Assembly: GCA_951812955.1 (NCBI GenBank)
Contig: OX638340.1
Span: 896,001-960,000, forward strand
From: an uncultured Gemmatimonadota bacterium
Lineage (GTDB): Bacteria; JAAXHH01
Length of the DNA: 64,000 nt
Direction of reading: 5' to 3'
Both the position numbers and the translations under genes were made by a program. Positions 2,112 through 64,000 of the stretch are shown piece by piece; positions within the stretch are counted from its first letter, which is position 1, and each line of letters opens with the position of its first letter. Below the pieces are notes generated by a model that was not told where the DNA came from, made no database searches, and saw only the letters and a list, made by a program, of their open reading frames with translations.

Positions 2112-2144
2112 GGCGCCTCCTGGGTGCGAAATGGCGTATTTTGT

Positions 2145-3747: not shown

Positions 3748-3757
3748 ATATCCCTTT

Positions 3758-5048: not shown

Positions 5049-5078
5049 TTGACACCTGATACCAAATCGCCGTATTTA
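5049..5078 (+). promoter_or_regulatory. putative sigma70-type promoter (-35 TTGACA 5049-5054, 18-bp spacer, -10 TATTTA 5073-5078) for the UXS-like gene
   Basis: GCGCTTGACACC followed by TATTTA. The ORF-track N-terminus (TTG at 5049) is actually this -35 element. Confidence 0.3.
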
Positions 5079-5132
5079 CCCCTTCATCCCGTTAATAACA
5101 ATGGCCTTGCACGGCCCGGAAAGGAACTGCTT

Positions 5133-6071: not shown

Positions 6072-6100
6072 GCCGGAATACGGGGAAAGGACCCTGGCCG

Positions 6101-7138: not shown

Positions 7139-7166
7139 TCAAGCACTCAAGCGCAACGGCACTGCC

Positions 7167-8096: not shown

Positions 8097-8122
8097 GGTA
8101 AGCTCCCGCATCGGGTTACGTC

Positions 8123-10195: not shown

Positions 10196-10198
10196 CCC

Positions 10199-13624: not shown

Positions 13625-13675
13625 AGGCATCGGCCGGCGGTCCCTTAAGACCGCGGCCGCCTGTATCTCCACACC

Positions 13676-14656
13676 ATGCCCACCGCATTGATCAGCCATC
13701 CCGATCTCCTGCTGCACGACACAGGCTCCTTCCATCCCGAACGGCCGGAGCGCATTACGTCCGTTCTTTCCCACCTCGGCGTGTCCGGCGACGAATCCAG
13801 CAACGAATCCGGCGACGAATCCCCCGGCACGAACCGGACCGGCCTGGTGCGCCTGTCGCCGTCCGCAGCCGATGAAGCCCGGATCAAGGCCGTCCACGAT
13901 GCGTCGTATGTCGACGCGGTAGCGGCGTGGTGCGCGGAAGGGTACCGGATTCTGCCCACCGGGGACACGACCCTTTCTTCCGCATCCGAGACCGTGGCCC
14001 GAATGGCTGCCGGCGCGGCAATACGAGCCGTCGACGCGGTACTGTCCAGGGAAGCGGACCGGGCATTCTGTGCCATCCGTCCTCCCGGGCATCATGCCGA
14101 ATCCGACCGGGGGATGGGCTTCTGCATCTACAACAACGCCGCCGTCGCGGCCCGTTACGCCCAGTCCCGCTTCGGGGTGGAACGGGTGGTCATCCTGGAC
14201 TGGGATGTCCACCACGGTAACGGGACCCAGGAGATTTTCGAGGACGACCCGTCCGTGTACTATATCAGCGTTCACCAGTCACCGCTCTATCCCTTTACCG
14301 GTGCTATGTGGGAAAAGGGCAGGGGAGAAGGGACGGGGTACACGATGAACGTCCCGGTTGCCGCGGGGTCCGGCGACGCGGTTTTCGTCGACGTGCTGCG
14401 CGGGCAGGTCATCCCGGCCATGAAGTCCTACCAACCGGATCTCCTCATTCTATCGGCGGGATTCGACGCCCACGTGGACGACCCGCTGTCCGGTACCCTG
14501 GTCACCGACGCGGGATTCCAGACCATGTCGCGCATCCTGATGGACTTCGTGGACGACGCCTGCGGGGGCCGCCTCGTATCCCTGCTGGAGGGCGGTTATG
14601 ATCTTGAAGTCCTGGGCCGGTGCGTCGCGGACCACGTAGGCATGATGGCGTCCTGA
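13676..14656 (+). CDS. histone deacetylase-family (acetoin utilization AcuC/HDAC-like) amidohydrolase
   Basis: 326 aa with HDAC-family motifs (RPPGHHAE, DWDVHHGNGTQ, EGGY). Confidence 0.8.
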   Translation: MPTALISHPDLLLHDTGSFHPERPERITSVLSHLGVSGDESSNESGDESPGTNRTGLVRLSPSAADEARIKAVHDASYVDAVAAWCAEGYRILPTGDTTLSSASETVARMAAGAAIRAVDAVLSREADRAFCAIRPPGHHAESDRGMGFCIYNNAAVAARYAQSRFGVERVVILDWDVHHGNGTQEIFEDDPSVYYISVHQSPLYPFTGAMWEKGRGEGTGYTMNVPVAAGSGDAVFVDVLRGQVIPAMKSYQPDLLILSAGFDAHVDDPLSGTLVTDAGFQTMSRILMDFVDDACGGRLVSLLEGGYDLEVLGRCVADHVGMMAS

Positions 14657-14726: not shown

Positions 14727-16152
14727 ATGAGACGAGAAGACTACCTGCAATGGGCCGAACGCGCGGCCCAATGGGGCGCCAGTTACCTGGCTACGCTCGA
14801 AGACCGTCCCGTCCGGGCGCAGACCGAACCGGGCGAAATCGCCGCGATGCTGCCGGTTATGCCACCGGAAGAGCCGGTGGACATGGAGACGATCTTCGAC
14901 GATTTCGAGCGCATCGTGCCGGACGGTATGACCCACTGGCAACACCGCCGTTTTTTCGCGTACTTCAGCGCCAACGCCGCGCCGGCTTCGATGATCGCCG
15001 AACACTTGACGGCCGTCATGGCGGCCCAATGCATGCTCTGGCAGACCTCGCCCGCGGCTACGGAGATCGAGACCCGCATGGTCGACTGGATGCGACAGGC
15101 ACTCGGTCTGCCGGAGGGGTTTCGCGGGGTTATCCAGGAGTCGGGCACCTCGGCGAATATCTGCGCCGTACTGACCATGCGAGAGCGCGCACTCGACTGG
15201 CGTGGGAACGACACCGGATTGGCGGGAGAGCATCAGCTCCGAATCTACGCCTCGCCGGAGGGCCATTCGTCGATCGACAAGGCGATCCGGATCACCGGTA
15301 TCGGCCAACAGCATCTCGTCAAAATCCCGACAGATGGTTCCTGGGCACTCGACCCTGATGCCCTTGGCCGTTCAATCGAAGCGGACCTCGCGGCGGGCTT
15401 CCGGCCGGCCGGTGTCATCCTCTGCGTCGGAGGCACGTCGATCGGCGCCTCTGACCACGTGCGCAAGACAATCGAAGTATCACGGGCATACGGGGCTCTA
15501 CGTCCATGTGGATGCGGCGTGGGCCGGTTCCGCGATGATCTGTCCCGAACTGCGGGCATTGTGGACGGGCGTCGAAGGCGCAGACAGCATCGTCTTCAAT
15601 CCGCACAAGTGGCTTGGCGCACAGTTCGACTGCTCGATCCAGTTTCTTGCAGACCCCGAACCGCAGGTACATACGCTGGGAATCCGACCGGATTATCTCG
15701 AAACCCTGGACCAGCGCGATATAACCAATTACAGCGAATGGACGATCCCTCTGGGGCGGCGCTTCCGCGCCCTGAAGCTATGGTTTCTGCTCCGTGCCCA
15801 CGGTCTGGAGGACCTCCGCAACCGTATCCGGAACCATATCGCCTGGGCAGGGGAGGCCGCGGACGCTATCGCATCGCTGGACGGATTTCGCCTGGCGACG
15901 GAACGCCATTTGGCACTCTTCACGTTCCAGTATGCTCCTGATGGTGTGCATGCCGACGACGCCACCGAACGCCTGCTTCGCGCCGTCAACGATGACGGTC
16001 GGATCTATTTGACGCACACAGTTCACGAGGGACGGTTCGTCATCCGCTTCCAGATCGGACAGTTCGATTGCCGGCGGGAGGACGTGCTCTTCGCAGTCGA
16101 GGTGCTGCGTGAGCTGGCCACTAAAGTAAACGTGAGCTGGCCACCAAATTGA
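14727..16152 (+). pseudogene. group II PLP-dependent decarboxylase (aromatic-L-amino-acid/tyrosine decarboxylase-like), disrupted by a +1 frameshift in a G4 run at 15492-15495
   Basis: Two overlapping ORFs (14727..15941 in frame 0, 15202..16152 in frame +1) together give a full-length decarboxylase of about 474 aa. Deleting one G from GGGG at 15492-15495 restores ...EVSRAYGLYVHVDAAWAGS..., including the PLP region (NPHKW). Confidence 0.7.
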
Positions 16153-18086: not shown

Positions 18087-18434
18087 ATGCCCGTCAACGA
18101 GATGATCCATACCATGCTGGAGGAATTGCGGCAGATCGCCGACACGGAGGTTCACGTGGGCAAACCCCTACATATCGGGGATTCCTATGTGGTTCCGGTT
18201 TCCAGGCTGTCCCTGGGGTTCGGTGCCGGGGGGTTTGGCGGCGAGGCCGATCAGAAGAGGGGGGCGGGGGGCGGTGTATCGGTCGAACCGGTCGCGTTTC
18301 TGGTCATCCAACAGGATCGCGCGCAACTGCTGCATATGAATTCGCCCAGCAGTCCCATGGGCAAGCTGCTGGATATCATGCCGGACGTCATCGAGGAACT
18401 GAAGAAGTATACCAGAAAAGACGGCGATCAGTAG
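18087..18434 (+). CDS. YtfJ/GerW-family small protein
   Basis: 115 aa with the characteristic glycine-rich core (GFGAGGFGGE...GAGGGVSVEPVAFLVI). GGAG-type RBS upstream. Transcribed divergently from lexA. Confidence 0.55.
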   Translation: MPVNEMIHTMLEELRQIADTEVHVGKPLHIGDSYVVPVSRLSLGFGAGGFGGEADQKRGAGGGVSVEPVAFLVIQQDRAQLLHMNSPSSPMGKLLDIMPDVIEELKKYTRKDGDQ

Positions 18435-20422
18435 ACCAGAGGCGCTACGGTCTTCGAAATCAGCGCGACGGCTACCGTGGCCATGCCGACCAATCCCGTG
18501 CCACAGGCATATCCGGCCGCGAGCACGGGCGTGTACCGCATCCATCTTTGCCTGCCGAACTTCCTTTCCATGTAGAACCTGCCCAGCAGTGCGCCGAAAA
18601 ACTGGGGAATGAAGGCGTGGGGCACCGTTCCCACGCTGGCGATCATACCGAAAATAAGCATGACAGGTAGATTGAAGGCTGCCAGGACGGCGTAGGCCAA
18701 TACGCCGAAAGCTGCGCCGCCTATCATGTAGGGGATTTTCAGCGCTTCGATCAGGTAGCTGGACTCGAATCCCGACCCGGCCGTGCTGGAATACCACAGC
18801 GCCTGCATCGTGGCCTGCTGCTGCCAGAACTTCTGCGCGTAGGGATAGGCCTGAGACGGAATAGGCGCGAGCCCCCAGACGAAGTGCCAGAACAGGAGAC
18901 TGCAGACCAGCAAAACGGGGATCATGACCAGCTCGGCCTTCAGCACGCTCGTGAACCGTGTTCCGGTGAGCTCGACTTCTCTAAAGGCCTGGGCCTGCCC
19001 CCCGTAGTTGAAAATCGGAATGGGCGCGAACCAGATGTCCACCCCCTTGTAGCCGCTGAGGATAAACGTGGCTTCCTTAATGAGGGGGAACTGCAGGTCG
19101 GCGCCCGTGATCGCGCGCAGGCGGGCGCTCGCGTACGAACTGATTGGCGTGTAAACGAACCCGTAGAACACGAAAAAGAGGATGGGGAACCCGGGCACCA
19201 GGCGCCAGCTCAGTACGACGTACCCAACTGTCAGAAGCAGAAAAGCGCCTAGAATCAGGGAGAAGGGAAAATCCCCCCTGCCGGTCGGCGTGGCGTTCCC
19301 GCTTGCAGATCCGCCCTTCGACTCTTCGCGCCCTTTTCCGCTCTTCCTTTTCCTGAGCCCGGCCAAAATGCTCCACCCGCCGATCAGCGCGACGGCTAAG
19401 CCCGTGCCGATGCGTACGCTCATCCAGAAATCGATATCGTTGACCAGCGTGGTCTGGATGGCGTCCATGCCCGGCGACCACGTACGCAGTATATTCAGAT
19501 CGTAGAGCAGCGGGTTGAGGACCACGGTAAGCAAAGCCCCGATGGCGGAACCGACCACGATCCAGAATGGCAGGACAAACCCCGTCAGCACTGGTCCCAG
19601 TCCCAGCTCGACCGCCATGGCCGCGGCCGGCAGAATGTTCTCGGTATTGCGCGTCAGGTCTGCAAAGGGAATGGGAATCAGTGTGATCGGTTCGGCCAGC
19701 AGCGCGCCCGTGACTGCCGGTATGCCGATATAGAACGCCCCGAATACGAGTCCCAGCATGGCCCCGATGCTGAATGCGCGCCAGCGCCATGATTCCTGTC
19801 CCGCCGAACTCTCCGCCAGGGCCGTGGCGCCTTCCGCCTGGATAGGAGCCAGGGGAAAGGGAAGGCGTTCCACGTCGGCCGTAACGCGGAATAATCCGTA
19901 ACCCAGCGTAAAGGCGCTCGCCCGGTTGAAGATGTGGAGCACGGCGACGAGCAGTATCGGCACGAGCCATTCCCCGTGCAGCAGCGTGCGGAGCACGATG
20001 GCTTCGGAGTCTCCACCGGGAGAGATCCACGAGGGAATCTGTTCGTCGATGCCGAAAGCCCGGGCTCCGGGGGACTGGACGAAGTACTGGTACCAGATCA
20101 GCTGGGCAAAGGGGCCCCCTGAAAGGGCCAGGCCCACGCCGGCGGTGAGGCTGGCCGCCACGTAGTACAGCATGTAAATTTCCTGGCGGCTGAGCTTGGT
20201 GAAGGACCGGCGCGCGACCTCGATAAACAGGATGATCGTGGTCCACTCCGCCGCGGGCCCCAGGCTCTGTCCGGCGATCAGGTTCAGGTAGATCGAACCG
20301 GGGATCATGAACAGCCCGAGAAAGACGATCCCAATGACCGTCTTTACGTTGAATCCTTCCTCGTAGACCTGGGGATGGTCGGAAAAGGCGGAGGTTGGCA
20401 GGTCGTCCTTAACTAGGGTCAT
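18428..20422 (-). CDS. polytopic membrane transporter, probably OPT (oligopeptide transporter) superfamily
   Basis: 664 aa and highly hydrophobic with about 15 or more predicted TM segments. The N-terminal region resembles OPT-family architecture. The call is by resemblance only. Confidence 0.45.
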   Translation of the reverse strand: MTLVKDDLPTSAFSDHPQVYEEGFNVKTVIGIVFLGLFMIPGSIYLNLIAGQSLGPAAEWTTIILFIEVARRSFTKLSRQEIYMLYYVAASLTAGVGLALSGGPFAQLIWYQYFVQSPGARAFGIDEQIPSWISPGGDSEAIVLRTLLHGEWLVPILLVAVLHIFNRASAFTLGYGLFRVTADVERLPFPLAPIQAEGATALAESSAGQESWRWRAFSIGAMLGLVFGAFYIGIPAVTGALLAEPITLIPIPFADLTRNTENILPAAAMAVELGLGPVLTGFVLPFWIVVGSAIGALLTVVLNPLLYDLNILRTWSPGMDAIQTTLVNDIDFWMSVRIGTGLAVALIGGWSILAGLRKRKSGKGREESKGGSASGNATPTGRGDFPFSLILGAFLLLTVGYVVLSWRLVPGFPILFFVFYGFVYTPISSYASARLRAITGADLQFPLIKEATFILSGYKGVDIWFAPIPIFNYGGQAQAFREVELTGTRFTSVLKAELVMIPVLLVCSLLFWHFVWGLAPIPSQAYPYAQKFWQQQATMQALWYSSTAGSGFESSYLIEALKIPYMIGGAAFGVLAYAVLAAFNLPVMLIFGMIASVGTVPHAFIPQFFGALLGRFYMERKFGRQRWMRYTPVLAAGYACGTGLVGMATVAVALISKTVAPLVY

Positions 20423-49202: not shown

Positions 49203-49231
49203 AGATCTGGTCATCATGAGAAAGGATGGAC

Positions 49232-50737
49232 ATGGACTATAATGGATTGCAGGTCGCGACGCTCGATGAGTCTCTGAGCGACGCCATTGCCGCGCGCGGT
49301 GGCAAACCTGTGGTATCCAGGGCGGACGACACGGAGAGCCTGGATTCCTTTCTTGAAAACCTGGCACGGGACGACATCGCCGTACTGTTACTGACAGAAC
49401 CTGAACATGTCCGTGCGTTGTTCGGTCGCGCGTCCGCAACAGGGCGCGTCGAGCCCCTGCTGGATGCAGTCAGGCAAATTGCCGTGGGTTCGGCGGGACC
49501 CGCGTGCACGAAAATCTGGAGAAACCACCATCTTTCCGTCGATTTCGAACCTGACGGGACCGGCGGAGAAGCACTCGTGTCGGGCATGGCGCGCCTCGCC
49601 GCATACCTGGTCAACAAGAAACGCACCGCCGTGGACAGTGGGGTGGACACCTCGCACTGGCAACGCATCGACATGCGGTGGCATTTCGAAAGCGATCCCT
49701 ACGGAACCCGGGGCGAGTCTGCCTTCCTCCGGGCGTGCCGCCGGGAACCGACGGAATATACGCCCGTATGGCTGCTGCGTCAGGCGGGCCGATACCAGCG
49801 GGCCTATCGGGAACTGAAATCCGACCTGGATTTCCTGGACATGTGCAAGACCCCGGAACTCACCGCCGAGATCACGTTGATGGCCGTAGAACGCCTGGGG
49901 GTGGACGCCGCCATCCTATTCGCAGACATCCTCCCGCTGCTGCAACCGATGGGCTTCCACCTGGAATACGTCAAGGGACAGGGACCCGTCATTCGCAATC
50001 CGATTCGGTCGGACCGGGCCGTGGATCAACTCGAGGAGGAAGGACCGGAATCCCAGCATTTCGTTTACGAGGCCATCCGCATGGCATTGCCGGCGCTTCC
50101 ACCCCATATCCCGCTCATCGGTTTTTCCGGCGCTCCATTCACCCTGGCCGCCTATGCCATCGAGGGGCAGAGTTCGCGGGACTTCAGGCGCGTCAAGACC
50201 TTCATGTATTCCGAACCGAGGGCCTGGCATGCCTTGATGGCGAAACTGGCGAGAACCGTCACGGCCTACCTCAACGAACAGATCGAGGCGGGCGTTCATG
50301 CCGTACAGTTATTCGACAGCTGGGCAGGCTGCCTTTCGCCCGATGATTACAGGACATTCGTCCTTCCCCATACCGGGTACGTCTTCTCCAATCTGCGCCC
50401 CGGCGTTCCTTCCATACATTTCGGGGTCTGCACCGGTTCTCTGCTCGATTTGATGCGGGAGGCGGGTGGTGAGGTCATCGGGCTGGATTGGCGCGTGGAC
50501 CTGTCCGAAGCATGGCAGGACCTTGAACACGAGGTGGCGGTCCAGGGAAACCTGGATCCCATGGTCCTCTTTTCGTCCCCCGATGTAATCCGCCAGCATG
50601 CGGCGACCGTCCTGCACAAGGCCGGGGGACGTCCCGGACATGTCTTCAACCTGGGTCACGGCATACTGCCCGGCACACCGGAAGACCACGTCATCGCGCT
50701 CGTGGACGCCGTGCATGAATTGGGAATCGCTCGATGA
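49232..50737 (+). CDS. hemE: uroporphyrinogen decarboxylase HemE with an N-terminal ~150-aa HemD (uroporphyrinogen-III synthase, HEM4)-like half-domain in the same reading frame
   Basis: C-terminal ~350 aa is canonical HemE (FLRACRREPTEYTPVWLLRQAGRYQRAYR...). The N-terminal 150 aa resembles one HEM4 domain. There is no stop between the two parts, and an RBS and promoter precede the ATG at 49232. An alternative reading is a separate HemE start at M150 (ATG 49673). Confidence 0.75.
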   Translation: MDYNGLQVATLDESLSDAIAARGGKPVVSRADDTESLDSFLENLARDDIAVLLLTEPEHVRALFGRASATGRVEPLLDAVRQIAVGSAGPACTKIWRNHHLSVDFEPDGTGGEALVSGMARLAAYLVNKKRTAVDSGVDTSHWQRIDMRWHFESDPYGTRGESAFLRACRREPTEYTPVWLLRQAGRYQRAYRELKSDLDFLDMCKTPELTAEITLMAVERLGVDAAILFADILPLLQPMGFHLEYVKGQGPVIRNPIRSDRAVDQLEEEGPESQHFVYEAIRMALPALPPHIPLIGFSGAPFTLAAYAIEGQSSRDFRRVKTFMYSEPRAWHALMAKLARTVTAYLNEQIEAGVHAVQLFDSWAGCLSPDDYRTFVLPHTGYVFSNLRPGVPSIHFGVCTGSLLDLMREAGGEVIGLDWRVDLSEAWQDLEHEVAVQGNLDPMVLFSSPDVIRQHAATVLHKAGGRPGHVFNLGHGILPGTPEDHVIALVDAVHELGIAR

Positions 50738-52155
50738 AAGTCGTCGTGGTCGGCGGGGGCATAGCCGGGTTGAGCGCCGCGCACCGGCTGGCGGAAACGA
50801 AACGTCACGACCTGGAAGTGACGCTGCTGGAGCGGACGGACCGATTCGGTGGCACGATACGCACGATCGAGCTCGGCGGATGTCTGGTCGAACTGGGTCC
50901 GGATTCCTTTCTTTCGTCCAAGCCCTGGTTGACGCAACTGGCTGAGCGATTGGGCGTGGCTGATCGGATCATCGCCACTGCAACCACCCATCGCAGGTCC
51001 CACGTCGTCCATCGCGGCAAGCTGCACCCGTTGCCCGACGGGTTCCTGATGATGGCGCCTACCCGCCTCTGGCCCATGGTGACCACTTCGCTTTTTTCGT
51101 GGACGGGCAAGATCCGGTGCGCTTTGGACCTGGTACTGCCACGTTCGCGTGCAACCGGAGACGAGAGTCTGGGCGCGTTCGTCCGCCGGCGTTTCGGCGG
51201 AGAGGTGCTCGAGCGCGTCGTACAACCGCTCATCGGGGGCATCTATGCGGGAGACCCCGATAGGCTCAGCCTGAAGGCCACCATCCCGCGGTTCCTCGAG
51301 ATGGAAACCCGATACCGCAGTGTCATACGGGCCATGGTCGCACAGCGGCGCGCGGCCGCCCGGCGCGGAGGCGGTCCCACGGCCGGCAGCGGCGCGCGCT
51401 ACGGTGAACTGGTCACCTTCGACCATGGCATGAAAACCATCGTGCAGGCGTTGATGGAAAGCCTTCCGGAAGAAACGATGCGCACGCATTCCGACGTCGT
51501 GAGCCTGAGCCGCGAAGGGGACCTCTGGCGTCTGGCATGCGGCGACGGACAGCATATCGATGCGGATGCGGTCATTCTTGCCCTGCCTGCCCGAAAGGCC
51601 GCGGATCTGCTTCGCGGCATCGAAACGGGCCTTCATGATGAACTGTCGGCCATCCCCCACGCGTCGACGGCCGTCCTGAACCTCGTGTACCGGCGTTCGG
51701 ATGTGCCCCATCCCATGGACTGCTTCGGGTTTGTGGTTCCCGCGGTAGAGGAACGGGATATCATCGCCTGCACCTTCAGCAGCGTTAAGTTCCCGAACCG
51801 GGCGCCGGAGGACCACGTGCTGTTGCGCGCTTTCATCGGCGGCGCCCGGCAGCGGCACATGCTCGGTTTCGATGACGGGGAGCTGAACCGGATCGTCCGG
51901 GCGGAGCTGAAAGACCTCATGGGCATCGAAGCCGCTCCTCTTCACACCGCGCTTGCCCGGTACCCGGACGCCATGCCCCAGTACCTCGTCGGCCATAGCC
52001 GGCGCGTTGAGCGGATCGAATCACTGCTCGATCGGTATCCCGGACTTGCGTTGGCAGGCAATGCCTATGGCGGCGTGGGCCTGCCCGATTGCGTGCGTTC
52101 GGGTGAACAGGCAGCGGAGCGGGTACTGGAGATGGAGGAGAACGGCTCCCGTTAG
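50734..52155 (+). CDS. hemY: protoporphyrinogen/coproporphyrinogen oxidase (HemY/CgoX-family FAD amine-oxidase fold)
   Basis: 473 aa with N-terminal FAD motif VVVVGGGIAGLSAA. ATGA overlap with the hemE stop. The last 8 codons plus stop are tandemly copied downstream. Confidence 0.8.
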   Translation: MKVVVVGGGIAGLSAAHRLAETKRHDLEVTLLERTDRFGGTIRTIELGGCLVELGPDSFLSSKPWLTQLAERLGVADRIIATATTHRRSHVVHRGKLHPLPDGFLMMAPTRLWPMVTTSLFSWTGKIRCALDLVLPRSRATGDESLGAFVRRRFGGEVLERVVQPLIGGIYAGDPDRLSLKATIPRFLEMETRYRSVIRAMVAQRRAAARRGGGPTAGSGARYGELVTFDHGMKTIVQALMESLPEETMRTHSDVVSLSREGDLWRLACGDGQHIDADAVILALPARKAADLLRGIETGLHDELSAIPHASTAVLNLVYRRSDVPHPMDCFGFVVPAVEERDIIACTFSSVKFPNRAPEDHVLLRAFIGGARQRHMLGFDDGELNRIVRAELKDLMGIEAAPLHTALARYPDAMPQYLVGHSRRVERIESLLDRYPGLALAGNAYGGVGLPDCVRSGEQAAERVLEMEENGSR

Positions 52156-52238
52156 CAGATGGAGAAGGGCGACTTTCGCTAGCAGTTGAAGGAGCACGAC
52201 TCCTGTTCGGAGATGGAGCAGGGCGACTCTTGTTGACC
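52129..52238. repeat. 4 degenerate tandem copies of a 27-bp unit (GATGGAG-AGGGCGACT-T-GTTAGCA-like) starting in the last codons of hemY
   Basis: Units at 52129-52157, 52158-52184, 52185-52211 and 52212-52238. In the hemY frame they read EMEENGSR*, QMEKGDFR*, QLKEHDSCS and EMEQGDSC*. Three of the four keep an in-frame stop. Confidence 0.8.
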
Positions 52239-52276
52239 GACGCCGCCCGCGGGATTCATGCGTCGTGTTCCCGTTC

Positions 52277-52378
52277 TCCGGATGACATTCAATCCGTCCC
52301 CCGGTCCCGCAGCATCGTGTTCCAGCTCGCCGGATGCCATTCAAGCAGTCCCCTGGTCCCGCAGCATCGCAATCGCCG
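52277..52378. repeat. direct repeat, about 50 bp x2 (period 52 bp, about 88% identity over the 41-bp core), spanning the sulP stop codon
   Basis: R2 (52329-52378) is the 3' end of sulP on the minus strand (...AIAMLRDQGTA*). R1 (52277-52326), downstream of the stop, translates on the minus strand to a degenerate copy NTMLRDRGTD* with its own TGA. Confidence 0.7.
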
Positions 52379-53969
52379 TCTTCCGGGCTTCCTCCATGCT
52401 TCCGACCAGGCGCCAATCGGGGATGCTCCTTACGATGTCGAAGGACTTCAGTGTTTTAGATGCTGCGCCCGAGAGTCCCATCACGATCGTACCGGTTTTC
52501 TGTTCTTCGGCGACCTCAAACAGCCGTTGAATCACAAGGGCCGCACTGTCGTCCACATACTGGGTGTCAGAAAAATCGAAGATGACCACCTGGTGTTCCT
52601 TGATGTCTTCACCAATGGCCATGACCAGTTTCCTTGATGAAGCGATGGTAAAGCTACCCCTGAGAGAGACCAGACCCACCCGAGCTGTATGGGGTTCCAC
52701 ACCGGCCTGGATTCCTTCGGTGGAGAAAAACTCGCGGTCCAACAGGGGCACTGAGACCACGTTGTCGAGCTCCAGGTGTTCCAGCTGCCGGGCGTGGACC
52801 ATCCCGGCGGCGATCAGCCCGATGGCCACTGCCGTGATCAGATCGATGAAAACCGTGAGGCCCAGCGTGAGCGCCATCACCAGCAGATGTTCCCGCTGGA
52901 GACGATGAATCCGGGCGAGTACCCGCCAGTCGATGATGTTCCATCCGACCACAATGAGGATACCGGCCAGGACGGCATGGGGAACCGGCTCGACAAACCT
53001 GCCCAACCCGAGTAGAATCAACAGCAGGAACACGGCGCGCAGAACGCCTGAGACCGGAGTCTGTCCTCCCGAACGGATATTCGCCACGGTACTGACGGTG
53101 GCACCTGATCCAGGAAGACCGCCAAACAGCCCTGCCGCCATGTTGCCTATACCCTGACCCACCAGTTCCCGGTCAGGATTATGGCTTGATCCCGTGAGCG
53201 AATCCGCGATGAGGCAGGCGAGCAGACTGTCCACGGAGCCCAAAAGGGCGATAATCAGCGCGGGTTGGACCGCATACAGCAGAAACGACCAGGAAGGCAA
53301 CTGGAACTGTAGCGCGGGCAGTCCGGCCGGTATCTCTCCAATAACCGGCACGTCACTCAGCCAGAATACGCCCACCATCGTGCCGGCCAGCAAAGCCAGC
53401 AAGGGCGCGGGCACGTACCGGCTCAGCTGCCGAGGCCAGAAAACCGCCAGGACAAGGGTGACCACGGCGATGGCTACTGCGCTGAAGTTCGTGCTGTTCA
53501 ATGCATCGGGAAGGGATCGGATCGCGGCAAGTGCGCCCCCAGGGGCGACAGGCGTGCCGAGAAACGGAAGGGCCTGCATGAGGATGATGATGATGCCGAT
53601 ACCGGACATGAATCCGGATACAACCACATGGGGGGTGTAGGCGATGTATCGGCCCAAATTGGAAATACCCAGCAGCACCTGGATCGCTCCGGCGAGCATG
53701 ACAACGATCAGCGCCTCCGAGAGCGTGCTCACCTGGCTGGTGACGATTAACGCCATCGCGATCGTGACGGATGGCGCAGGACCGGAAACCACCGTCCGCG
53801 TGCCGCCGAACACTGAAGCAAAGAAACCTACCGCGATCGCGCCGTACATGCCCGCGGCCGCACCCATGCCGGACGCAACGCCAAAGGCCAGTGCGAAAGG
53901 CAATGACACCACGGCGGAGGTGAGTCCGCCGGTAAAATCACCTCTGAATGTACCCGGATCATACTTCAA
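52341..53969 (-). CDS. SulP-family sulfate/anion permease with C-terminal STAS domain
   Basis: 542 aa with a SulP-type N-terminus (FRGDFTGGLTSAVVSLPFALAFGVASG), many TM segments and a C-terminal STAS region. Confidence 0.85.
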   Translation of the reverse strand: MKYDPGTFRGDFTGGLTSAVVSLPFALAFGVASGMGAAAGMYGAIAVGFFASVFGGTRTVVSGPAPSVTIAMALIVTSQVSTLSEALIVVMLAGAIQVLLGISNLGRYIAYTPHVVVSGFMSGIGIIIILMQALPFLGTPVAPGGALAAIRSLPDALNSTNFSAVAIAVVTLVLAVFWPRQLSRYVPAPLLALLAGTMVGVFWLSDVPVIGEIPAGLPALQFQLPSWSFLLYAVQPALIIALLGSVDSLLACLIADSLTGSSHNPDRELVGQGIGNMAAGLFGGLPGSGATVSTVANIRSGGQTPVSGVLRAVFLLLILLGLGRFVEPVPHAVLAGILIVVGWNIIDWRVLARIHRLQREHLLVMALTLGLTVFIDLITAVAIGLIAAGMVHARQLEHLELDNVVSVPLLDREFFSTEGIQAGVEPHTARVGLVSLRGSFTIASSRKLVMAIGEDIKEHQVVIFDFSDTQYVDDSAALVIQRLFEVAEEQKTGTIVMGLSGAASKTLKSFDIVRSIPDWRLVGSMEEARKTAIAMLRDQGTA

Positions 53970-54021
53970 TGACAGGTATCCCTTGCAGATTACGACCGAT
54001 TACACGACGAGACCGCCCATA

Positions 54022-55359
54022 TCATCTTACCAGCCTTCTGAAGGGTTCTTTCTTCAGATCGCATTCCAGCAATTCCGCCAGGTTGCCACGGTCCAGGCCC
54101 GACTTGATGAGGCCGAAGACCTCCGACGCGGCTTCGCCGAGCTGCCGGATGTCTTCCTCCGTGTGGGCCATGGTTACCCGGAACGAGGTCGGGGTGAAAA
54201 CGCCCCGCCGCGACATCTCCTGGACGAATAGCGTGGAGACGACGGGCAGTAGTTCTGGATCGGGCAGGTCGAAGGAAAGGCCGGGATTGTAGGACAGGCC
54301 CACGCAGGCGCCCGGAAGCCCCGCGCTCGCCAGGGCGTCGTTTATCGTGGCTTTGACCAATGTACCCATGGATTCGAAGAAGGTTTCTGAATCCCGTCGT
54401 TTCAACTCGCGAATCGTGGTCAGCGCGGCGGCCAGACCCACGTTGTCGCTCCAGTAGGAACTGGAAACGAACATCGAAGCGGCCGGCGCCATGGCTTCGC
54501 GGGATCCCACGACGGCGCCCATGGCGTATCCGTTCGACATGGCTTTGGCCAGGGTCGTCACGTCGGGCGTCACCCCGGTATACTCCTGAAATCCCCCGAT
54601 GCGAAAGCGCCATCCGCAGGACACCTCGTCGAACACCAGCAGCGCGTCGTGTTCATGGGCCAGCCGCTTCACGGATTCCAGGTATCCGGGAGGCGGAAGC
54701 TCGGACCGCGCGGGTTCCATCATGACCGCCGCGACCTGTCCGTCGTACTGCTTGAGCAGGTCCGAGAGCATGTCCAGGTCACCGTACGTGAAGGGTATGG
54801 CCGTCCCCGCCAGTACGCGCGGCACGCCGATGGGCTCGATGCCCGCGAAGGGATATTCGCCGCTTTCGGGATCGACGAGGTAGTTGGCGGACTGGTACCA
54901 GTCGTGCCAGCCATGGTATCCGCAGAAGAGGATAATGTCCTTCCCGGTCGTACCCCGCACGATACGCACCGCCAGGGCGCAGGTCTCGCCGCCCGCCTTG
55001 GCGTACCGCACCATCTCGGCGCTGGGGATGGTATCGACGAGTTCCTCGGCGAGTTCGATTTCGAGCGCGCTGTTCAGCGTGTAGATGCTGCCCCGGTCGA
55101 TCTGTTCCTTCACCGCCTGGTCCACAACGTCATCGGCATGGCCCAGGATGATGGCGCTGACGGCGTTCATCATGTCCAGGTACTCGTTGCCGTCCACGTC
55201 TGTGAACCGCGCGCCCTTGGCCCGTTCCGCGTACACGGGGCTCACCCCGTTTGCGAACTGGCTGGCCCGCCTGCTGATCAGTTGCGTCCAGCCAGGGATC
55301 AATTGCTCGGCCCGTCTGTACATGCTCATGGACTGTTCTACGGAACGGATGACGGTCAT
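54022..55359 (-). CDS. class III aminotransferase (glutamate-1-semialdehyde 2,1-aminomutase-like fold)
   Basis: 445 aa with N-terminal AEQLIPGWTQ, GYHGWHDW and PLP-lysine region typical of GSA-AM-like enzymes. Last gene of a three-gene minus-strand operon. Confidence 0.75.
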   Translation of the reverse strand: MTVIRSVEQSMSMYRRAEQLIPGWTQLISRRASQFANGVSPVYAERAKGARFTDVDGNEYLDMMNAVSAIILGHADDVVDQAVKEQIDRGSIYTLNSALEIELAEELVDTIPSAEMVRYAKAGGETCALAVRIVRGTTGKDIILFCGYHGWHDWYQSANYLVDPESGEYPFAGIEPIGVPRVLAGTAIPFTYGDLDMLSDLLKQYDGQVAAVMMEPARSELPPPGYLESVKRLAHEHDALLVFDEVSCGWRFRIGGFQEYTGVTPDVTTLAKAMSNGYAMGAVVGSREAMAPAASMFVSSSYWSDNVGLAAALTTIRELKRRDSETFFESMGTLVKATINDALASAGLPGACVGLSYNPGLSFDLPDPELLPVVSTLFVQEMSRRGVFTPTSFRVTMAHTEEDIRQLGEAASEVFGLIKSGLDRGNLAELLECDLKKEPFRRLVR

Positions 55360-55401
55360 GCCTTCCTTCCTTTCACAATGTAAGTACGTCGTCGCGGCGC
55401 A

Positions 55402-56232
55402 TCAGCCGCGCGTCCGGTGCCAGGGTTTGAACAGCGCGCGCTGGTCGTCGTCCCAGCGCTTGAAAGTCGATTCGGTTATGTACTGCGCTTCGTCCATGGT
55501 GGCCTGATTCTGCGAAAGCATCCAGTAGGGACCGTATCCTACGTGGATGGTCTTCCGGACCTGGACGGACCGGTTGGTAATGCCGCCGTGCCTCAGGTTT
55601 TCCGTGAACAGAATGGCGTCGCCGGCCTTGACTTCCAGGGCGATCATGCCGGGTTCCTCGTCCGGATTGCCGCCATGGGGGCAGGGAAGGTTCGTCTTGT
55701 GGGTGCCGGGGACAACGGAAAAAGCGCCCTGGTCCCGGGAAACATCGTGAATGAAGTAGATCATGCGCACCATCATGCAGTCGATTCCGCCCGCGTTGAA
55801 CGCGTATCGGTACTTCTGATTCTCCGGACGCATGCCGCCGTGGGAGCCCGACTGGTTGCCGCGGTAGCGTATCCGGATCTCCGAGTTGTTAATCGTGGCC
55901 CTGCCCTGGACGATCCCGCCGATATACGCCATCGTGCGCGGGTCGTTCACCAGTACGTCGAATCGCTCGTCGGCATTCCAGAAATCCTCTATGATAATGG
56001 TTCTTCCTTCTTCATTCGATCCATCGGCGTGGTATCCCAGTTCGGGATTGCGGTGATAGTCCGGTCCCCACGGGCTGGCCTTTCGGGGCGGTTCATCGAG
56101 GTGCCGCAAAGCATGGACTTCCAGTTCGTCCACGGCGGACGCAAGCGAGGACACGGTATCGGAATCCAGCATGTCCTCGATCACGATATAGCCCTGTCGG
56201 TCGAATTCGTAGCGTTCGACATCGTTCATCAC
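55402..56232 (-). CDS. phytanoyl-CoA dioxygenase (PhyH)-family Fe(II)/2-oxoglutarate-dependent oxygenase
   Basis: 276 aa with PhyH-like HxD...H context (HAD...H near the C-terminus). Start lies 7 bp after the stop of the upstream PBP-like gene. Confidence 0.7.
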   Translation of the reverse strand: MMNDVERYEFDRQGYIVIEDMLDSDTVSSLASAVDELEVHALRHLDEPPRKASPWGPDYHRNPELGYHADGSNEEGRTIIIEDFWNADERFDVLVNDPRTMAYIGGIVQGRATINNSEIRIRYRGNQSGSHGGMRPENQKYRYAFNAGGIDCMMVRMIYFIHDVSRDQGAFSVVPGTHKTNLPCPHGGNPDEEPGMIALEVKAGDAILFTENLRHGGITNRSVQVRKTIHVGYGPYWMLSQNQATMDEAQYITESTFKRWDDDQRALFKPWHRTRG

Positions 56233-56238
56233 GACTCC

Positions 56239-57072
56239 TTAGCTGCCGGGTTCCCAGAGTGGAACGTAACCCGCCCGTTCGACGACGGCCTGACCCTCGT
56301 CGCTCAGTATCCAATCGACGAAGGACTTGATGGCGCCACGCGGCGAATGGGCGATGTAGAAATACAGGTACCTGTTCAGAGGATAGGTGCCGTCCCGCAC
56401 GGTGGCGGCCGTGGGAAACACACCGTTGATGCTGCAGGGCACAGTCCCCTCGCCAGATCGGATCCCTCCGTATCCGATCGCGTTGGGCCAGCGCGCCACG
56501 GTCTCGACCACGGCCCTGGAAGTGGGCACGATCCGCGCTTGCGGAGTAAAATCCAACTCCTGAAGCACGAATTGGTCGAAATACACGCGCGTGCCCGAGT
56601 TCGGGGGACGGTTTACCACGAGGATAGGTGCTTGCGGTCCATTAACCTGGCGCCAGTTATCGATCTTTCCCGAGAAAATCGCCCTGACCTGGTCGATGGA
56701 GAGATCGCGAACGGTATTCTCGCGATGGACATATATGCTCAGCGCGTCCCGTGCTGTCAGAATGCTCATGCCGAGCGAACCGCGCTTCTCCAGCAACCGC
56801 TTGACTTCATCGGCAAGCATGGTCCGCGAGGCTGCCCCAATATCGGTTTTCCCGGAGATCAACGACTCGATGCCAAAACGGCTGCTTCCGCTTTCGGTTT
56901 CGATGAACACCCCGGGGTGGGCGTCCATGTATGCGAACGCCCACTGCTGCACCAACCGGTTCATCGTGGTCGACCCGGTGATTTTGAATCGTACGGGTCC
57001 ATCCATCACGGGCGGCGCCGCGATACCGCACGATAAAAGAAACAGGCCCGCTATCCCAATGAGTCGCTTCAT
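56239..57072 (-). CDS. PstS-family (PBP-like 2) phosphate/phosphonate-type substrate-binding lipoprotein
   Basis: 277 aa with lipoprotein signal (LFLLSCG) and a GSTTM..NRPPNSGTR pattern typical of PstS-like binding proteins. No permease or ATPase genes adjacent. Confidence 0.6.
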   Translation of the reverse strand: MKRLIGIAGLFLLSCGIAAPPVMDGPVRFKITGSTTMNRLVQQWAFAYMDAHPGVFIETESGSSRFGIESLISGKTDIGAASRTMLADEVKRLLEKRGSLGMSILTARDALSIYVHRENTVRDLSIDQVRAIFSGKIDNWRQVNGPQAPILVVNRPPNSGTRVYFDQFVLQELDFTPQARIVPTSRAVVETVARWPNAIGYGGIRSGEGTVPCSINGVFPTAATVRDGTYPLNRYLYFYIAHSPRGAIKSFVDWILSDEGQAVVERAGYVPLWEPGS

Positions 57073-57092
57073 TTCTCAATCCGCGCCGGCAT

Positions 57093-58751
57093 CTACCGGC
57101 TTTCGATGATGGACCGCAGCCGCGCCACGTTGTACCGTGACTGCGAAACCCATTGCACAGGCCGAAAGGTATCGGCCAGGGCGCCGACGTAGGCGAGCAG
57201 CACCTGGACGTGCTGCCGGACTGCGGCGCGGTTGAACGGCTGTTCGAGATCGTCGAAGGGCGTGTGGTACCGGAGCCGGCCCCAATTAACGAAGATCTCG
57301 ATGCCCGCCTCGCTCGAAAGGTTCTTGAACTGTATCCCTTCCATGAGCAGTATCGCAGGAATGCCTGCCTGGGCAAAAGCGAACTGGTCAGACAGAGCGA
57401 AGGGGTCCAGACCCTGGAACATCAGGGGAATCTGCGAGACCGTCATGTCCAGTTCACCGGCGACTGTTTGCAGCAGTTCTCCCAGGGTGGACAGTTCGGC
57501 GCCGACCCCAATGATATCCCTGAAGGTGTCGACGATGGCGAGTCCATCCACGTTAACCGCCGCCATCGTCCGATGCAGCGGTACGGCCGGGTGGTCCAGG
57601 TAGAATCGGCTGCCGAGCATGCCCTTCTCTTCTCCCGTTACGAAAAGAAAGACCAGAGACCTCCTCGGCGGCTCGGGCATGGCCGCGATCCCGCGGGCTA
57701 TCTCCAGCACACCGGAACACCCCAACGCGTTATCGACCACGCCGTTGTATATGGAATCCGCCAAGACTGGAGGGCCGACTCCCAGGTGGTCGTAATGGGC
57801 CGAGACGATCACGTACTCGTTCCGAAGTATCGGATCGCTGCCCGGCAGGACGCCAATGACATTGGACGAGAAGAACTCGCGCTCCCGGAATCTTCCCACG
57901 AAGCGTAGCTGCGTTTCGAGCGGAAAACTGCGCATTTCGTAATTCAGGTCCATTTCATACACGTCACCCAGACTGTAGGAGGCTCCTTCAAAAAAAACGG
58001 AGGCCCGGGCCGGGTTCACCAGCATGGTCAGGTTCGCGGGCTCACCGTAAAGCAGCGTGACATGCTCGAAGGCGAACATATCCCGCCATTCGCTCCACGT
58101 ACGTCCACCATGTTCCCGGTATGAAGGAATCATGATGCTGCCCACCGCGCCCCTGGACAGGGCCTGGCGCTGCTTCATCCCGGGAATGGAATGGACGGTC
58201 GGTCGTACCCCCTTGAAATAGTCTGTCACTTCCGAGTAGGGTTCGCCCGATAGAAAAACCACGACCGCTCCCTCTACCTGGAGGTCCTGGTAATCGTCGT
58301 AGTCGTATTCCGGCGCGATGATACCATAGCCGACGAACACGATAGGCACCGGCTGGGGTATGATGGTATAGTCCCCAGTGTCGTACAGGAGATAGTCCTG
58401 GACCAATTCGAGTTGATAGACCGTGTCAGCGACAATGACCTGTAACAGGCTACCTGAAAGCGCGTGGCTGCCATGTAGCGGTACACGTTGCAGGTATGAT
58501 CCGTCTTCCGCACCTGGCCTGATTTTCAGGTGCCGCAGTTGGTCTGCAAGGTATTGCGCCGCGGTATCAGCACCCGCGGTGCCCACGGCCCTTCCCATCA
58601 ACCGATCATTGCCCAGGTACTCCGTATGGGACCATATCCGTTCGATGGATACCGATTCCATTGCCATCCGCACCCTGGGGGATAGGGCCTGCTGCGCATG
58701 GCAGGGCGCAACAAGGAGCAATTGCAGCAGCATCAGTGCGTAACGCGGCAT
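57093..58751 (-). CDS. M28-family peptidase (aminopeptidase-like with PA domain), secreted
   Basis: 552 aa with N-terminal signal peptide and M28 zinc-ligand regions (HYDHLG, DNALGCS...EEKG). Confidence 0.7.
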   Translation of the reverse strand: MPRYALMLLQLLLVAPCHAQQALSPRVRMAMESVSIERIWSHTEYLGNDRLMGRAVGTAGADTAAQYLADQLRHLKIRPGAEDGSYLQRVPLHGSHALSGSLLQVIVADTVYQLELVQDYLLYDTGDYTIIPQPVPIVFVGYGIIAPEYDYDDYQDLQVEGAVVVFLSGEPYSEVTDYFKGVRPTVHSIPGMKQRQALSRGAVGSIMIPSYREHGGRTWSEWRDMFAFEHVTLLYGEPANLTMLVNPARASVFFEGASYSLGDVYEMDLNYEMRSFPLETQLRFVGRFREREFFSSNVIGVLPGSDPILRNEYVIVSAHYDHLGVGPPVLADSIYNGVVDNALGCSGVLEIARGIAAMPEPPRRSLVFLFVTGEEKGMLGSRFYLDHPAVPLHRTMAAVNVDGLAIVDTFRDIIGVGAELSTLGELLQTVAGELDMTVSQIPLMFQGLDPFALSDQFAFAQAGIPAILLMEGIQFKNLSSEAGIEIFVNWGRLRYHTPFDDLEQPFNRAAVRQHVQVLLAYVGALADTFRPVQWVSQSRYNVARLRSIIESR

Positions 58752-58994
58752 AAGACCGGTTTCTCGTTTGTGGCTGCGGGTGGCGACCCACTGCCGGTCT
58801 GTTCATCGTAACCTGTTCTTTAGGAAGCGATCCTTCAGCATGCTTCGATCCGATGGCTAGTTCAGCAGGTGGAAAACCAAACCAGGACCACGTATCCTCG
58901 TGATTCAAAATAACGCAAGAACGGGAGCCTGACAATATGCGCGTGGACCGTATGGTTTATTTTCCAGTGGCGGTCGTCTACGCCAATCTGAGAG

Positions 58995-59023
58995 TTGACG
59001 CGTCTCACGGGAATCTTTATATA
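58995..59023 (+). promoter_or_regulatory. putative sigma70-type promoter of the pntAA-pntAB-pntB operon (-35 TTGACG 58995-59000, 17 bp, -10 TATATA 59018-59023)
   Basis: Near-consensus hexamers with optimal spacing in an AT-richer 400-bp intergenic region. Predicts a 5' leader of about 125 nt. Confidence 0.4.
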
Positions 59024-59153
59024 TAGAACTCGGCCGGCCAGGATCCGGCAGTCGCCAATTAAGCAGCGCTTCATGGGCGGGGCCGGACAAGACGACGGGC
59101 CGTTGCCTCCAGGCGTCCTCGATTACCGAGCAAGCATCCAGTCGGAGCACTAA

Positions 59154-60311
59154 ATGACCATCGGCGTCCCTACTGAAACCAGTCCGGGCGAGCGGCGCGT
59201 ATCCATCGTTCCGGCCGGGGTTTCCAACCTGGTGAAGGCGGGATGCGCCGTCCGGGTCTCCGCGGGCGCGGGCCGGGAGGCGGGCATCTCGGACGCAGAA
59301 TACGAAGAAGCCGGCGCCACAGTCGTGCAGGAGCGCGGATCCGTATTCGACGAGTCCGACGTGATCGTGCAGGTAAGAGGCGGCGGCGCGAATCCCGACT
59401 CAGGCATGGCGGACGTGGAGCGATTGCGCGAGGGACAGGTGCTGATCAGTTTCCTGGAACCGTTGTCGGCCCCGGCGGAGATCAAGGCGCTCTCCAACCG
59501 GCGGGTGACCGCCTGCGCCATGGAATTCATACCGCGGACATCCCGTGCGCAAAGCATGGACGCCCTTTCTTCCCAGGCCAACATCGGGGGGTACAAGGCC
59601 GCGCTGGTAGCGGCCGAATACCTGCCCAGACTTTTCCCCATGATGATGACCGCGGCCGGGACCATAACGCCCGCCCACATTTTCGTGGTCGGCGTCGGTG
59701 TGGCCGGGCTGCAGGCCATCGCCACGTGCAAGCGGCTGGGCGCCGTGATCCAGGCCTACGACGTGCGTCCCGCCGTCAAGGAGCAGGTCCAGAGCGTCGG
59801 GGCCCGGTTCGTGGAGCTGGAACTGGATACGGCCGATTCGGAAGGATCGGGTGGGTACGCCCAGGCCATGGACGAGCAGTTCTATGCAAAACAACGCGAG
59901 ATGATGGCCCGCGTCGTATCTGAAAACGACGTCGTGATCACCACGGCCGCCGTACCCGGCAAGCCAGCGCCCGTGCTGGTTACAGAAGACATGATTAAAA
60001 GCATGCGGCCCGGCTCGGTCGTGATCGATCTCGCTGCGGAGCGGGGGGGAAACTGCGAAATCACCGAACCCGGCAGGACCGTCGTCAAGCACGGCGTGAC
60101 GCTCGTGGGCGAGGTGAATCTTCCTTCAACCGTGCCCTTTCATGCCAGCCAGATGTATTCCAACAACATCGTGAATTTCCTTAAGCTGATGATAAACGAC
60201 GGTACGCTTGACGTGGGCATCGACGACGACATCGTGCAAGGCGCAACGGTAACCCGCGACGGCGAGATCGTCAACGAGCAGGTGAGCGCCCTGCTTACCG
60301 AAGCCGGGTGA
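59154..60311 (+). CDS. pntA: NAD(P) transhydrogenase subunit alpha part 1 (PntAA, alanine-dehydrogenase-like dI domain)
   Basis: 385 aa with N-terminus IGVPTETSPGERRVSIVP and Rossmann region VVGVGVAGLQAIA diagnostic of PntAA. Confidence 0.85.
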   Translation: MTIGVPTETSPGERRVSIVPAGVSNLVKAGCAVRVSAGAGREAGISDAEYEEAGATVVQERGSVFDESDVIVQVRGGGANPDSGMADVERLREGQVLISFLEPLSAPAEIKALSNRRVTACAMEFIPRTSRAQSMDALSSQANIGGYKAALVAAEYLPRLFPMMMTAAGTITPAHIFVVGVGVAGLQAIATCKRLGAVIQAYDVRPAVKEQVQSVGARFVELELDTADSEGSGGYAQAMDEQFYAKQREMMARVVSENDVVITTAAVPGKPAPVLVTEDMIKSMRPGSVVIDLAAERGGNCEITEPGRTVVKHGVTLVGEVNLPSTVPFHASQMYSNNIVNFLKLMINDGTLDVGIDDDIVQGATVTRDGEIVNEQVSALLTEAG

Positions 60312-63370: not shown

Positions 63371-64000
63371 ATGATGCAATCGCAGAAGGCAGATGAGATC
63401 AACGTGGACGACCGGGACTGGCGCGCGTTGACCCGGGGCGAGCGTATCCGGATGATCGAAGAGGAGGGCTATCTGATCATACCGGACTGGATCCCGCCCG
63501 GCTATCTGGCGGAACTGAAAGCGGAATGCAGAAAACTCGAAACGGTCGGACGGGACTACAGCGAAAAGCAACGGGGCTGCAGGGATCCCCACCTGAGCAG
63601 CCGGAAACTGGCCGAACTCATCGCCTACGAACCCACTGTCGCATTCCTGGAAGCGTTGTTCGGCGACCGACTCGTTTTTATTCACTATACCTACGACCGG
63701 TCCGAGCCCGGCACCCCTGGCATCAGTCTACATACCGACGGTCAGCCCTACGGATCCAAGATATTCGGTTACGAAGGGAGTTGTCCCATCACCGTGCGGG
63801 TACTCTACTATCTCGACGACCTGACGATGGACGTATCACCTTTCCGGGTGGTTCCAAGGTCCCATCTCTGCATGCACGCGGACGCCCATCCGTACAAAAG
63901 GTACGACGGGCATCCCGAAGAGGTCGTCGTACCGTGCACCGCGGGTTCGGCGCTGTTTCTCAACCACCGGACGTTTCACGGCACCCTGCCCAACAGGGGA
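63371..64000 (+). CDS. phytanoyl-CoA dioxygenase (PhyH)-family protein, 3'-truncated by the window end
   Basis: ATG at 63371 with RBS AAAGGAGGG. The translation MMQSQKADEINVDDRDWRAL...HTDGQPYG... has a PhyH-like His-x-Asp facial triad region. It is not in the ORF track because it has no stop within the window. Confidence 0.55.
   Translation, partial: MMQSQKADEINVDDRDWRALTRGERIRMIEEEGYLIIPDWIPPGYLAELKAECRKLETVGRDYSEKQRGCRDPHLSSRKLAELIAYEPTVAFLEALFGDRLVFIHYTYDRSEPGTPGISLHTDGQPYGSKIFGYEGSCPITVRVLYYLDDLTMDVSPFRVVPRSHLCMHADAHPYKRYDGHPEEVVVPCTAGSALFLNHRTFHGTLPNRG

Follow-up and report, generated by a model that had tools for sequence, protein, structure and literature searches.

A five-gene array of an uncultured Gemmatimonadota bacterium probably combines two unrelated gene modules

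Introduction

Three tightly spaced genes on one strand raise the question whether their products serve a common pathway. Such genes lie at positions 54,022 to 57,072 of a 64-kb stretch of contig OX638340.1 from an uncultured Gemmatimonadota bacterium (assembly GCA_951812955.1); this whole stretch is called the window here. They code for a substrate-binding lipoprotein (PBP), an oxygenase of the PhyH family (PhyH) and a class-III aminotransferase (AT). A first-pass annotation of the DNA had suggested that the three proteins take up or bind, hydroxylate and transaminate one small amino- or phosphonate compound, adding that this is not a canonical operon, which is also our view.

The comparison with related genomes led us to a different answer. 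The block probably consists of two unrelated modules that lie side by side, an M28 peptidase gene with the PBP gene and the PhyH gene with the AT gene, very likely under one promoter. Because the two gene pairs are separately conserved, the array lends no support to a pathway for the uptake of phosphonates or amino compounds. A pathway guessed from tight spacing in one genome is thereby corrected by relatives that reveal modules with different histories. All proteins of the array are new members of known families, and there is little in them to surprise a specialist.

Results

The array in related genomes

The three genes are part of a minus-strand array of five in the order M28-PBP-PhyH-AT-SulP with gaps of 20, 9, 42 and 52 nt. 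The first-pass annotation had the coordinates and the adjacency of the three genes right, but it overlooked the M28 gene upstream and the SulP gene downstream on the same strand, and the gaps it gave as 7 and 43 bp are actually 6 or 9 nt, depending on the start codon of PhyH, and 42 nt. The elements of the array are listed in the direction of reading.

58907-58935, minus strand: putative promoter of the sigma-70 type, TTGTCA-N17-TATTTT, ahead of the M28 gene
57093-58751, minus strand: M28 peptidase of 552 aa with a signal peptide, exported
56239-57072, minus strand: PBP, a PstS-family lipoprotein of 277 aa
56235-56240, minus strand: ribosome-binding site AAGGAG of PhyH, read directly off the sequence, 5 nt ahead of the ATG at 56229
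55402-56229, minus strand: PhyH oxygenase, 275 aa from the ATG at 56229, cytoplasmic
54022-55359, minus strand: class-III aminotransferase (AT) of 445 aa
52341-53969, minus strand: SulP/STAS anion transporter, BicA-like with a score below the cut-off; last and variable gene of the array

A scan with the PhyH family, taking one genome per species, yielded 80 loci, cited below by L numbers. Of these, 21 belong to one close clade, in which the PhyH proteins are 76-97% identical. They are metagenome-assembled genomes (MAGs) from sponges, corals and seawater, which are labelled Gemmatimonadota or Latescibacterota. The closest relatives of the window are sponge and coral MAGs; at the DNA level a contig of an Aplysina MAG (L006) reaches about 97.5% identity with it, and the complete chromosome OY762445 (L007) about 94%.

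PhyH and AT were adjacent in all 21 clade genomes, located between the divergent pntAA and the convergent hemY-hemE. M28 together with an intact PBP gene was present in six of the 21 (L006, L008, L011-L014) and M28 with half of a PBP gene, i.e. a truncated one, in L020, while M28 was absent from 14. Among the latter is L007, the closest complete genome, which lacks M28, most of PBP and SulP. A clear remnant of 45-236 nt of the PBP 3'-end was found directly before PhyH in nine of the 14 genomes devoid of M28; in another four merely 12-36 nt of PBP could be aligned, and L025, the most distant member of the clade, had no remnant at all. Because the 3' remnants of PBP are seen in the alignment, the ancestor of the clade is taken to have carried M28-PBP-PhyH-AT. 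The remnants break off at three or more different points, which indicates no fewer than three independent deletions of M28-PBP in the clade. Every one of these deletions spared the stretch with the ribosome-binding site of PhyH and the 3' end of PBP. Module 1, the peptidase and the lipoprotein, would thus be an accessory of this lineage that is being lost by deletion. Module 2, the oxygenase and the AT, is a cytoplasmic pair that every relative has kept.

The SulP gene was at least 75% present in seven of the 21 clade genomes. Its distribution was patchy (e.g. L001, L012, L024, L028): some copies were intact, others fragmented or partly deleted, and most genomes had none.

Outside the clade the identity of PBP homologs falls to about 50%. 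In L089 and L090 the homolog directly follows an M28 peptidase of 554-557 aa with a 4-bp overlap in the gene calls, and the rest of the neighbourhood is unrelated to the window. A metagenome scan with the PBP family added 80 more loci, 66 of which have at least 600 bp upstream of PBP. In 61 of these 66 loci, which are partly redundant, but still span 30-72% GC, PBP was preceded by a co-directional, full-length M28 ortholog (42-55% identical) that ended no more than 400 bp away. PhyH was in none of the 66 loci. Neither was an AT of the window type; two unrelated aminotransferases, 31% identical, were located on the opposite strand. By sequence, M28 is the conserved partner of PBP, and dozens of lineages from the environment show this pairing, frequently with pst and pho genes close by. 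Presence and absence in the clade together with the neighbours elsewhere assign PBP to the module of M28 and not to that of PhyH and AT.

The promoter and the start of PhyH

In the region 52000-59300 the element TTGTCA-N17-TATTTT was the sole promoter-like site on the minus strand, and no terminator-like site was found on that strand in the same region. Both hexamers are invariant across eight related genomes including L007. In L007, where M28-PBP is deleted, the element sits just upstream of PhyH. Thus the promoter probably drives the whole minus-strand array. Because the element ends up near PhyH after the deletion, the same promoter probably serves PhyH-AT whether module 1 is present or not. 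It weighs against co-transcription of the array that the promoter and terminator calls are consensus matches only.

The open reading frame of PhyH has an alternative GTG start at 56232, which would leave 6 nt to PBP instead of the 9 nt with the ATG. Sequence comparison makes the ATG at 56229 likelier, because all homologs start there. The ribosome-binding site of PhyH overlaps the stop codon of PBP.

The segment 58752-59153 is a strongly conserved divergent promoter region. On its plus strand we read a TTGACG-N17-TATATA facing pntAA in the aligned sequence.

The oxygenase

The second gene had been assigned to the PhyH-family Fe/2-oxoglutarate (2OG) oxygenases, and this was borne out by Pfam (PhyH, 58 bits). 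The PhyH family takes in the 2-aminoethylphosphonate (2-AEP) hydroxylase PhnY* and the ectoine hydroxylase EctD, and an affinity to these two had been implied. Profile searches did not bear it out. The EctD model TIGR02408 gave 19.6 bits with a cut-off of 336.5, in a match confined to the N-terminal 37 residues; hits to further NCBIfam families, those for phosphonates included, were absent. An AlphaFold2 model of the oxygenase, which was built on 50 orthologs, had a pLDDT of 93.5. More than 500 solved PhyH-type structures matched it, and the 16 best solved fold matches were all HygX with E = 2e-18 and TM-scores of 0.64-0.77. By this model the oxygenase is a PhyH-fold Fe(II)/2OG enzyme with a double-stranded beta-helix and predicted binding of metal and 2OG.

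The motifs of the oxygenase are H130-G-G, R155, E210-N-L-R-H214 and R225. With the exception of G131 these residues are invariant or nearly so in the 50 orthologs; H130, H214 and R225 are invariant, the Arg, which would bind 2OG, being 11 residues past the distal His. The iron site of HygX reads H-x-G…E-x3-H, and a lysine, Lys137, occupies the space where the Asp is missing (PMC13374393). HMMER aligned E210-x3-H214 of the oxygenase to the E-x3-H of HygX and R155 to Lys137. When the PhyH paralogs of the fetched loci were included in a MAFFT alignment, H130 came to lie on the His of the canonical H-x-D, and the three proteins without the Asp were the only ones with a Glu at the fourth position ahead of the distal His. 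By these alignments and its fold the oxygenase is of the HygX type, with a predicted clustering of H130, E210 and H214. In this rare kind of iron site Gly takes the place of the usual Asp, and the carboxylate would be supplied by the Glu. An identity with PhnY* or EctD was rejected on the scores, the motif, which is H-G-G and not H-x-D, and the fold, which is that of HygX.

HygX is the hygromycin B orthoester synthase (4XC9, 4XCA, 4XCB). It is the best fold match and has the variant iron site and the basic residue in common with the oxygenase. On the other hand, the two proteins are only about 20% identical and the window has no orthosomycin or aminoglycoside cluster. An orthosomycin gene cluster was found neither in the window nor in the 80 related loci, and membership of the oxygenase in an orthosomycin pathway was rejected for want of a surrounding cluster.

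L087 contains a third PhyH paralog at 14795-15622, which is unrelated, with an identity of about 23%. Its H-C-A…E-x3-H joins a halogenase-like H-x-A with a relocated Glu.

The orthologs show unusually high conservation, with 62-70% identity in MAGs that are labelled Gemmatimonadota, Latescibacterota, Zixibacteria, Planctomycetota, Chloroflexota, Spirochaetia and Capsulimonadaceae. Their names are no finer than "phytanoyl-CoA dioxygenase family" or "ectoine hydroxylase-related dioxygenase". Because the oxygenase family is 63-97% conserved across phyla, the sequences suggest a housekeeping or catabolic role and not one in secondary metabolism. The usual neighbours in other phyla, an Amidohydro_2 protein immediately upstream (27 loci), PhyH paralogs, short-chain dehydrogenases/reductases, malate synthase G and a sulfatase, suggest catabolism of polar compounds. 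NCBIfam searches with the genes conserved beside the distant orthologs of PhyH and AT returned weak, non-diagnostic hits (Amidohydro_2 lactonase-like, RmlD-like, GH130-like, rhodanese, zinc-dependent alcohol dehydrogenase, M19 dipeptidase and sarcosine-oxidase-like), from which no substrate could be deduced. Given its HygX-type iron site the enzyme would oxidise a C-H or O-H group of a polar metabolite, possibly one that is sugar- or glycoside-like. PhyH-domain proteins are expanded in sponge symbionts, where their roles are mostly unknown (PMC3909097). What makes the family of interest is that it is highly conserved and has, away from antibiotic clusters, the rare iron site of HygX.

Coupling of oxygenase and aminotransferase

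Whether PhyH and AT are also functionally coupled is a question on which we see roughly even chances. Three observations speak for a coupling. The PhyH-AT pair outlasts every flanking deletion in the clade. In L051 (about 9000-14010) and L083 (261-5058), which are more distantly related, the same strand carries an unknown gene, PhyH, an RmlD-like gene for an NAD-dependent reductase, a second HygX-type PhyH with the motif H-R-G…E-x3-H, and AT; this cluster may be a fuller, ancestral form of the module. Finally, AT orthologs adjoin PhyH-family genes again in L087 and L088. The latter, a Caldilineaceae MAG, has a PhyH gene (9571-10425) directly downstream of the AT ortholog, and its product is 60% identical to that of the clade's second PhyH gene, which is full-length in L001. 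A counterpart of this L001 copy begins on the plus strand of the window at 63371-64000, where the 5' part of a second PhyH gene with a canonical H-T-D runs off the end.

As a side observation, the first gene of the L051 and L083 clusters codes for a 262-aa protein without a match in Pfam or NCBIfam.

PhyH and AT may instead be merely inherited neighbours with unrelated substrates, and the array would then hold no pathway at all. The points in favour of this possibility also weigh against a coupling. Synteny within the clade extends over the entire region, which makes the adjacency of the two genes weak and little informative evidence there. About 55 PhyH orthologs from other phyla (63-74% identical) have no class-III aminotransferase within 10 kb. 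Conversely, three distant AT orthologs lie beside other genes, a zinc-dependent alcohol dehydrogenase in three of three and an M19 dipeptidase in two of three, and the pairing of the two enzymes may thus not be obligatory. Yet mere inheritance does not readily account for a pair that survives all flanking deletions, for the same-strand clusters with the RmlD-like gene and the second HygX-type PhyH, or for the repeated vicinity of AT orthologs and PhyH-family genes. Thus we consider this explanation a possible, though somewhat doubtful one.

The lipoprotein and its M28 partner

The first-pass description of PBP as a lipoprotein of the PBP-like-2 type held true. PBP_like_2 was matched with 131 bits, and the lipobox LLSC contains Cys15, which is invariant in the family. 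The designation as phosphate/phosphonate-type proved correct in its first half. PBP scored 208.3 bits with TIGR02136, the PstS family, with a cut-off of 206.6, and 51 with the equivalog model TIGR00975, i.e. below the cut-off of 205. In Pfam the only hits were PBP_like_2, PBP_like and SBP_bac_11, in NCBIfam only PstS models. A phosphonate-binding protein of the PhnD type was rejected, as no phosphonate-binding model in Pfam or NCBIfam was matched. Solved PstS proteins matched PBP over the full length with E of about 1e-30. The motifs GS[TD]T, ASR and R-x-P-N-S-G-T are invariant in 18 members of the PBP family and align with those of solved PstS. We take the R-P-N-S-G-T residues to be the counterpart of the clamp in E. 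coli PstS, in which Arg and Ser-Gly-Thr hold the phosphate.

PBP thus has the motifs and the lipoprotein anchor in common with PstS proteins (TIGR02136; 4GD5, 4Q8R, 4EXL), and relatives of it precede pstCAB. It differs from PstS systems in that pstCAB is missing from the window and that the usual neighbour is an M28 peptidase. Its identity with the canonical 348-aa PstS of loci in which relatives lie with a pst operon is about 24%. Most likely PBP is a PstS-type phosphate-binding lipoprotein and not a PhnD-type one, judging by its profile and motifs. The lipoprotein would bind periplasmic orthophosphate and hand it over to a PstCAB encoded elsewhere. That neither a permease nor an ATPase lies nearby had been stated correctly: the ABC ATPase signature is absent from the whole 64-kb window, and about 40 of its open reading frames contained no ABC permease, phosphonate gene or HD phosphohydrolase according to Pfam.

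M28 matched Peptidase_M28 with 136 bits in residues 297-521. Its nearest solved relatives, weakly, are the leucyl aminopeptidases of Vibrio and Aeromonas, with which it shares the M28 catalytic domain and all dizinc ligands; E. coli Iap is another of the M28 aminopeptidases. Unlike these enzymes M28 of the window has about 290 N-terminal residues without a Pfam match and, systematically, a PstS-like gene partner. In 45 full-length M28 orthologs located beside PBP homologs (40-54% identical) the metal and catalytic residues H319, D321, D340, E374, E375, D402 and H496 were all retained.

Several of the PBP loci point to phosphate. Six (L123, L134, L142, L143, L145, L149) contain M28, PBP, a porin O/P-like gene, the 348-aa PstS, PstC, PstA and PstB. 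In L152 and L157 a 43%-identical PBP relative lies directly before pstC-pstA-pstB without M28. Other loci carry PhoR/PhoB-like two-component genes or a low-molecular-weight phosphatase (LMWPc). Because relatives adjoin pst and pho genes, the M28-PstS module probably serves phosphate scavenging. In such a mechanism the dizinc hydrolase M28 would have an accessory role.

Two points weigh against phosphate uptake. PBP clears the cut-off of TIGR02136 only narrowly, and phosphate as its ligand is predicted. Furthermore, the loci with a full pst operon also hold a second, canonical PstS, which leaves room for another ligand or role of the paralog linked to M28. A literature search found no description of a pairing of M28 and PstS in connection with phosphate starvation. 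A bolder reading would make M28 and the PstS lipoprotein an undescribed, widespread phosphate-scavenging module of two proteins, in which the hydrolase sets phosphate free, unmasks it or brings a phosphatase to maturity and the lipoprotein captures the phosphate for PstCAB. It would also make the HygX-type family, 63-97% conserved across at least six phyla, responsible for a common oxidation in primary or catabolic metabolism and not in antibiotic synthesis; we hold this reading to be rather unlikely.

The seven-gene arrangement is exemplified by L123 at 1529-9041, where two PstS paralogs occur in one phosphate locus.

If the PstS-like protein had no part in phosphate uptake, it might be the ligand-binding partner of the peptidase and present a phosphorylated substrate to it or regulate it. 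The very consistent pairing with M28, the separate canonical PstS where a pst operon follows and the lack of pstCAB in the window would agree with such a function. However, in L152 and L157 the 43%-identical relative is the sole binding protein before pstCAB, and the motifs of the PstS family are conserved. We therefore regard a mere partner of the peptidase as unlikely.

The aminotransferase

The description of AT as similar to glutamate-1-semialdehyde (GSA) aminomutases was confirmed. Pfam assigned it to Aminotran_3 with 138 bits, and the best NCBIfam matches were GSA-aminomutase models, all well under their cut-offs: 229.7 for TIGR00713 (hemL; cut-off 527.3), 237.7 for NF000818 (398) and 268.8 for PRK06209 (NF004856; 486). 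The pyridoxal phosphate (PLP) residues K272, which forms the Schiff base, and D244, which contacts the pyridine nitrogen, are invariant in 27 AT orthologs and HemL. In the Synechococcus HemL a residue of the Glu406 type excludes 2-oxo acids; the corresponding loop is 4 residues shorter in the AT family, and HMMER aligned a Lys or Arg with the HemL Glu, while the MAFFT alignment differed. Orthologs of 67-73% identity occur in Poribacteria, Caldilineaceae and others.

Could AT be a divergent HemL that acts in haem synthesis with the adjacent hemE and hemY, PhyH being unrelated to it? The best-scoring families and solved structures are indeed GSA aminomutases, and hemY and hemE are convergent just downstream throughout the clade. 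Yet all HemL models scored at about half of the cut-off or less, and the identity of AT with B. subtilis HemL was as low as 30-32%. Two features set the AT family apart from HemL, an insertion of 5 residues behind the YHG motif and, at the C terminus, a conserved extension of about 27 residues. Moreover, no hem genes were located near the three distant AT orthologs that were examined, which belong to other phyla, and in the array AT is co-directional and tightly linked with PhyH and not with the convergent hem genes. On account of the scores below cut-off, the insertions and deletions and the non-hem context elsewhere AT was rejected as a HemL ortholog, and a role in haem synthesis is very unlikely.

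AT has the class-III fold with the PLP-binding Lys and Asp, and in sequence it is matched best by HemL and the similar transaminases GntE, GenB/NeoN (C-6' aminotransferases) and D-phenylglycine aminotransferase. From the HemL group it differs by scores below every curated cut-off and by its own insertion and C-terminal extension. The nearest characterised relatives apart from HemL are GntE, aminoglycoside C-6' aminotransferases and fumonisin aminopentol aminotransferase, which act on aldehydes, ketones and primary amines. Like these, AT would interconvert an aldehyde or ketone and a primary amine.

The one-pathway proposal

The idea that PBP, the oxygenase and AT form one uptake-hydroxylation-transamination pathway for a small amino- or phosphonate compound, as in 2-AEP catabolism of the PhnY* type, draws on three closely spaced and, in this genome, probably co-transcribed genes and on PhnY* and EctD being PhyH-family enzymes, but it is largely refuted by the presence/absence pattern, PBP being absent or decayed in 15 of the 21 relatives that retain PhyH-AT and hence dispensable for the pair, and it has become extremely improbable, as PBP relatives keep company with M28 (61 of 66 loci) and not with PhyH or AT, PBP is of the PstS type with some relatives next to pstCAB, the oxygenase is far from EctD (19.6 of 336.5 bits), matches no phosphonate family and folds like HygX, and PBP is extracytoplasmic while both enzymes are cytoplasmic.

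Partner genes that the first-pass annotation had proposed to look for, phnZ or another HD phosphohydrolase gene and an ABC permease, were not found in the window, nor were phnW and phnX. The same annotation had named two findings that would speak against its pathway, HemL orthology of AT in a hem context and a lack of co-occurrence of the other two genes with AT in other genomes. The first was not observed; the second was observed for PBP but not for PhyH.

Other genes of the window

The window contains a gene for uroporphyrinogen decarboxylase at 49226-50737 on the plus strand. The protein of 503 aa has its URO-D domain in residues 165-498, preceded by an N-terminal extension of about 160 residues without a Pfam match; relatives have 500-503 aa. 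Two further open reading frames had no Pfam match at E <= 1e-5, one of 1141 aa at 10199-13624 on the plus strand and one of 664 aa at 18428-20422 on the minus strand. The former comes after a MoxR/DUF58/BatA-type cluster at 6101-10195.

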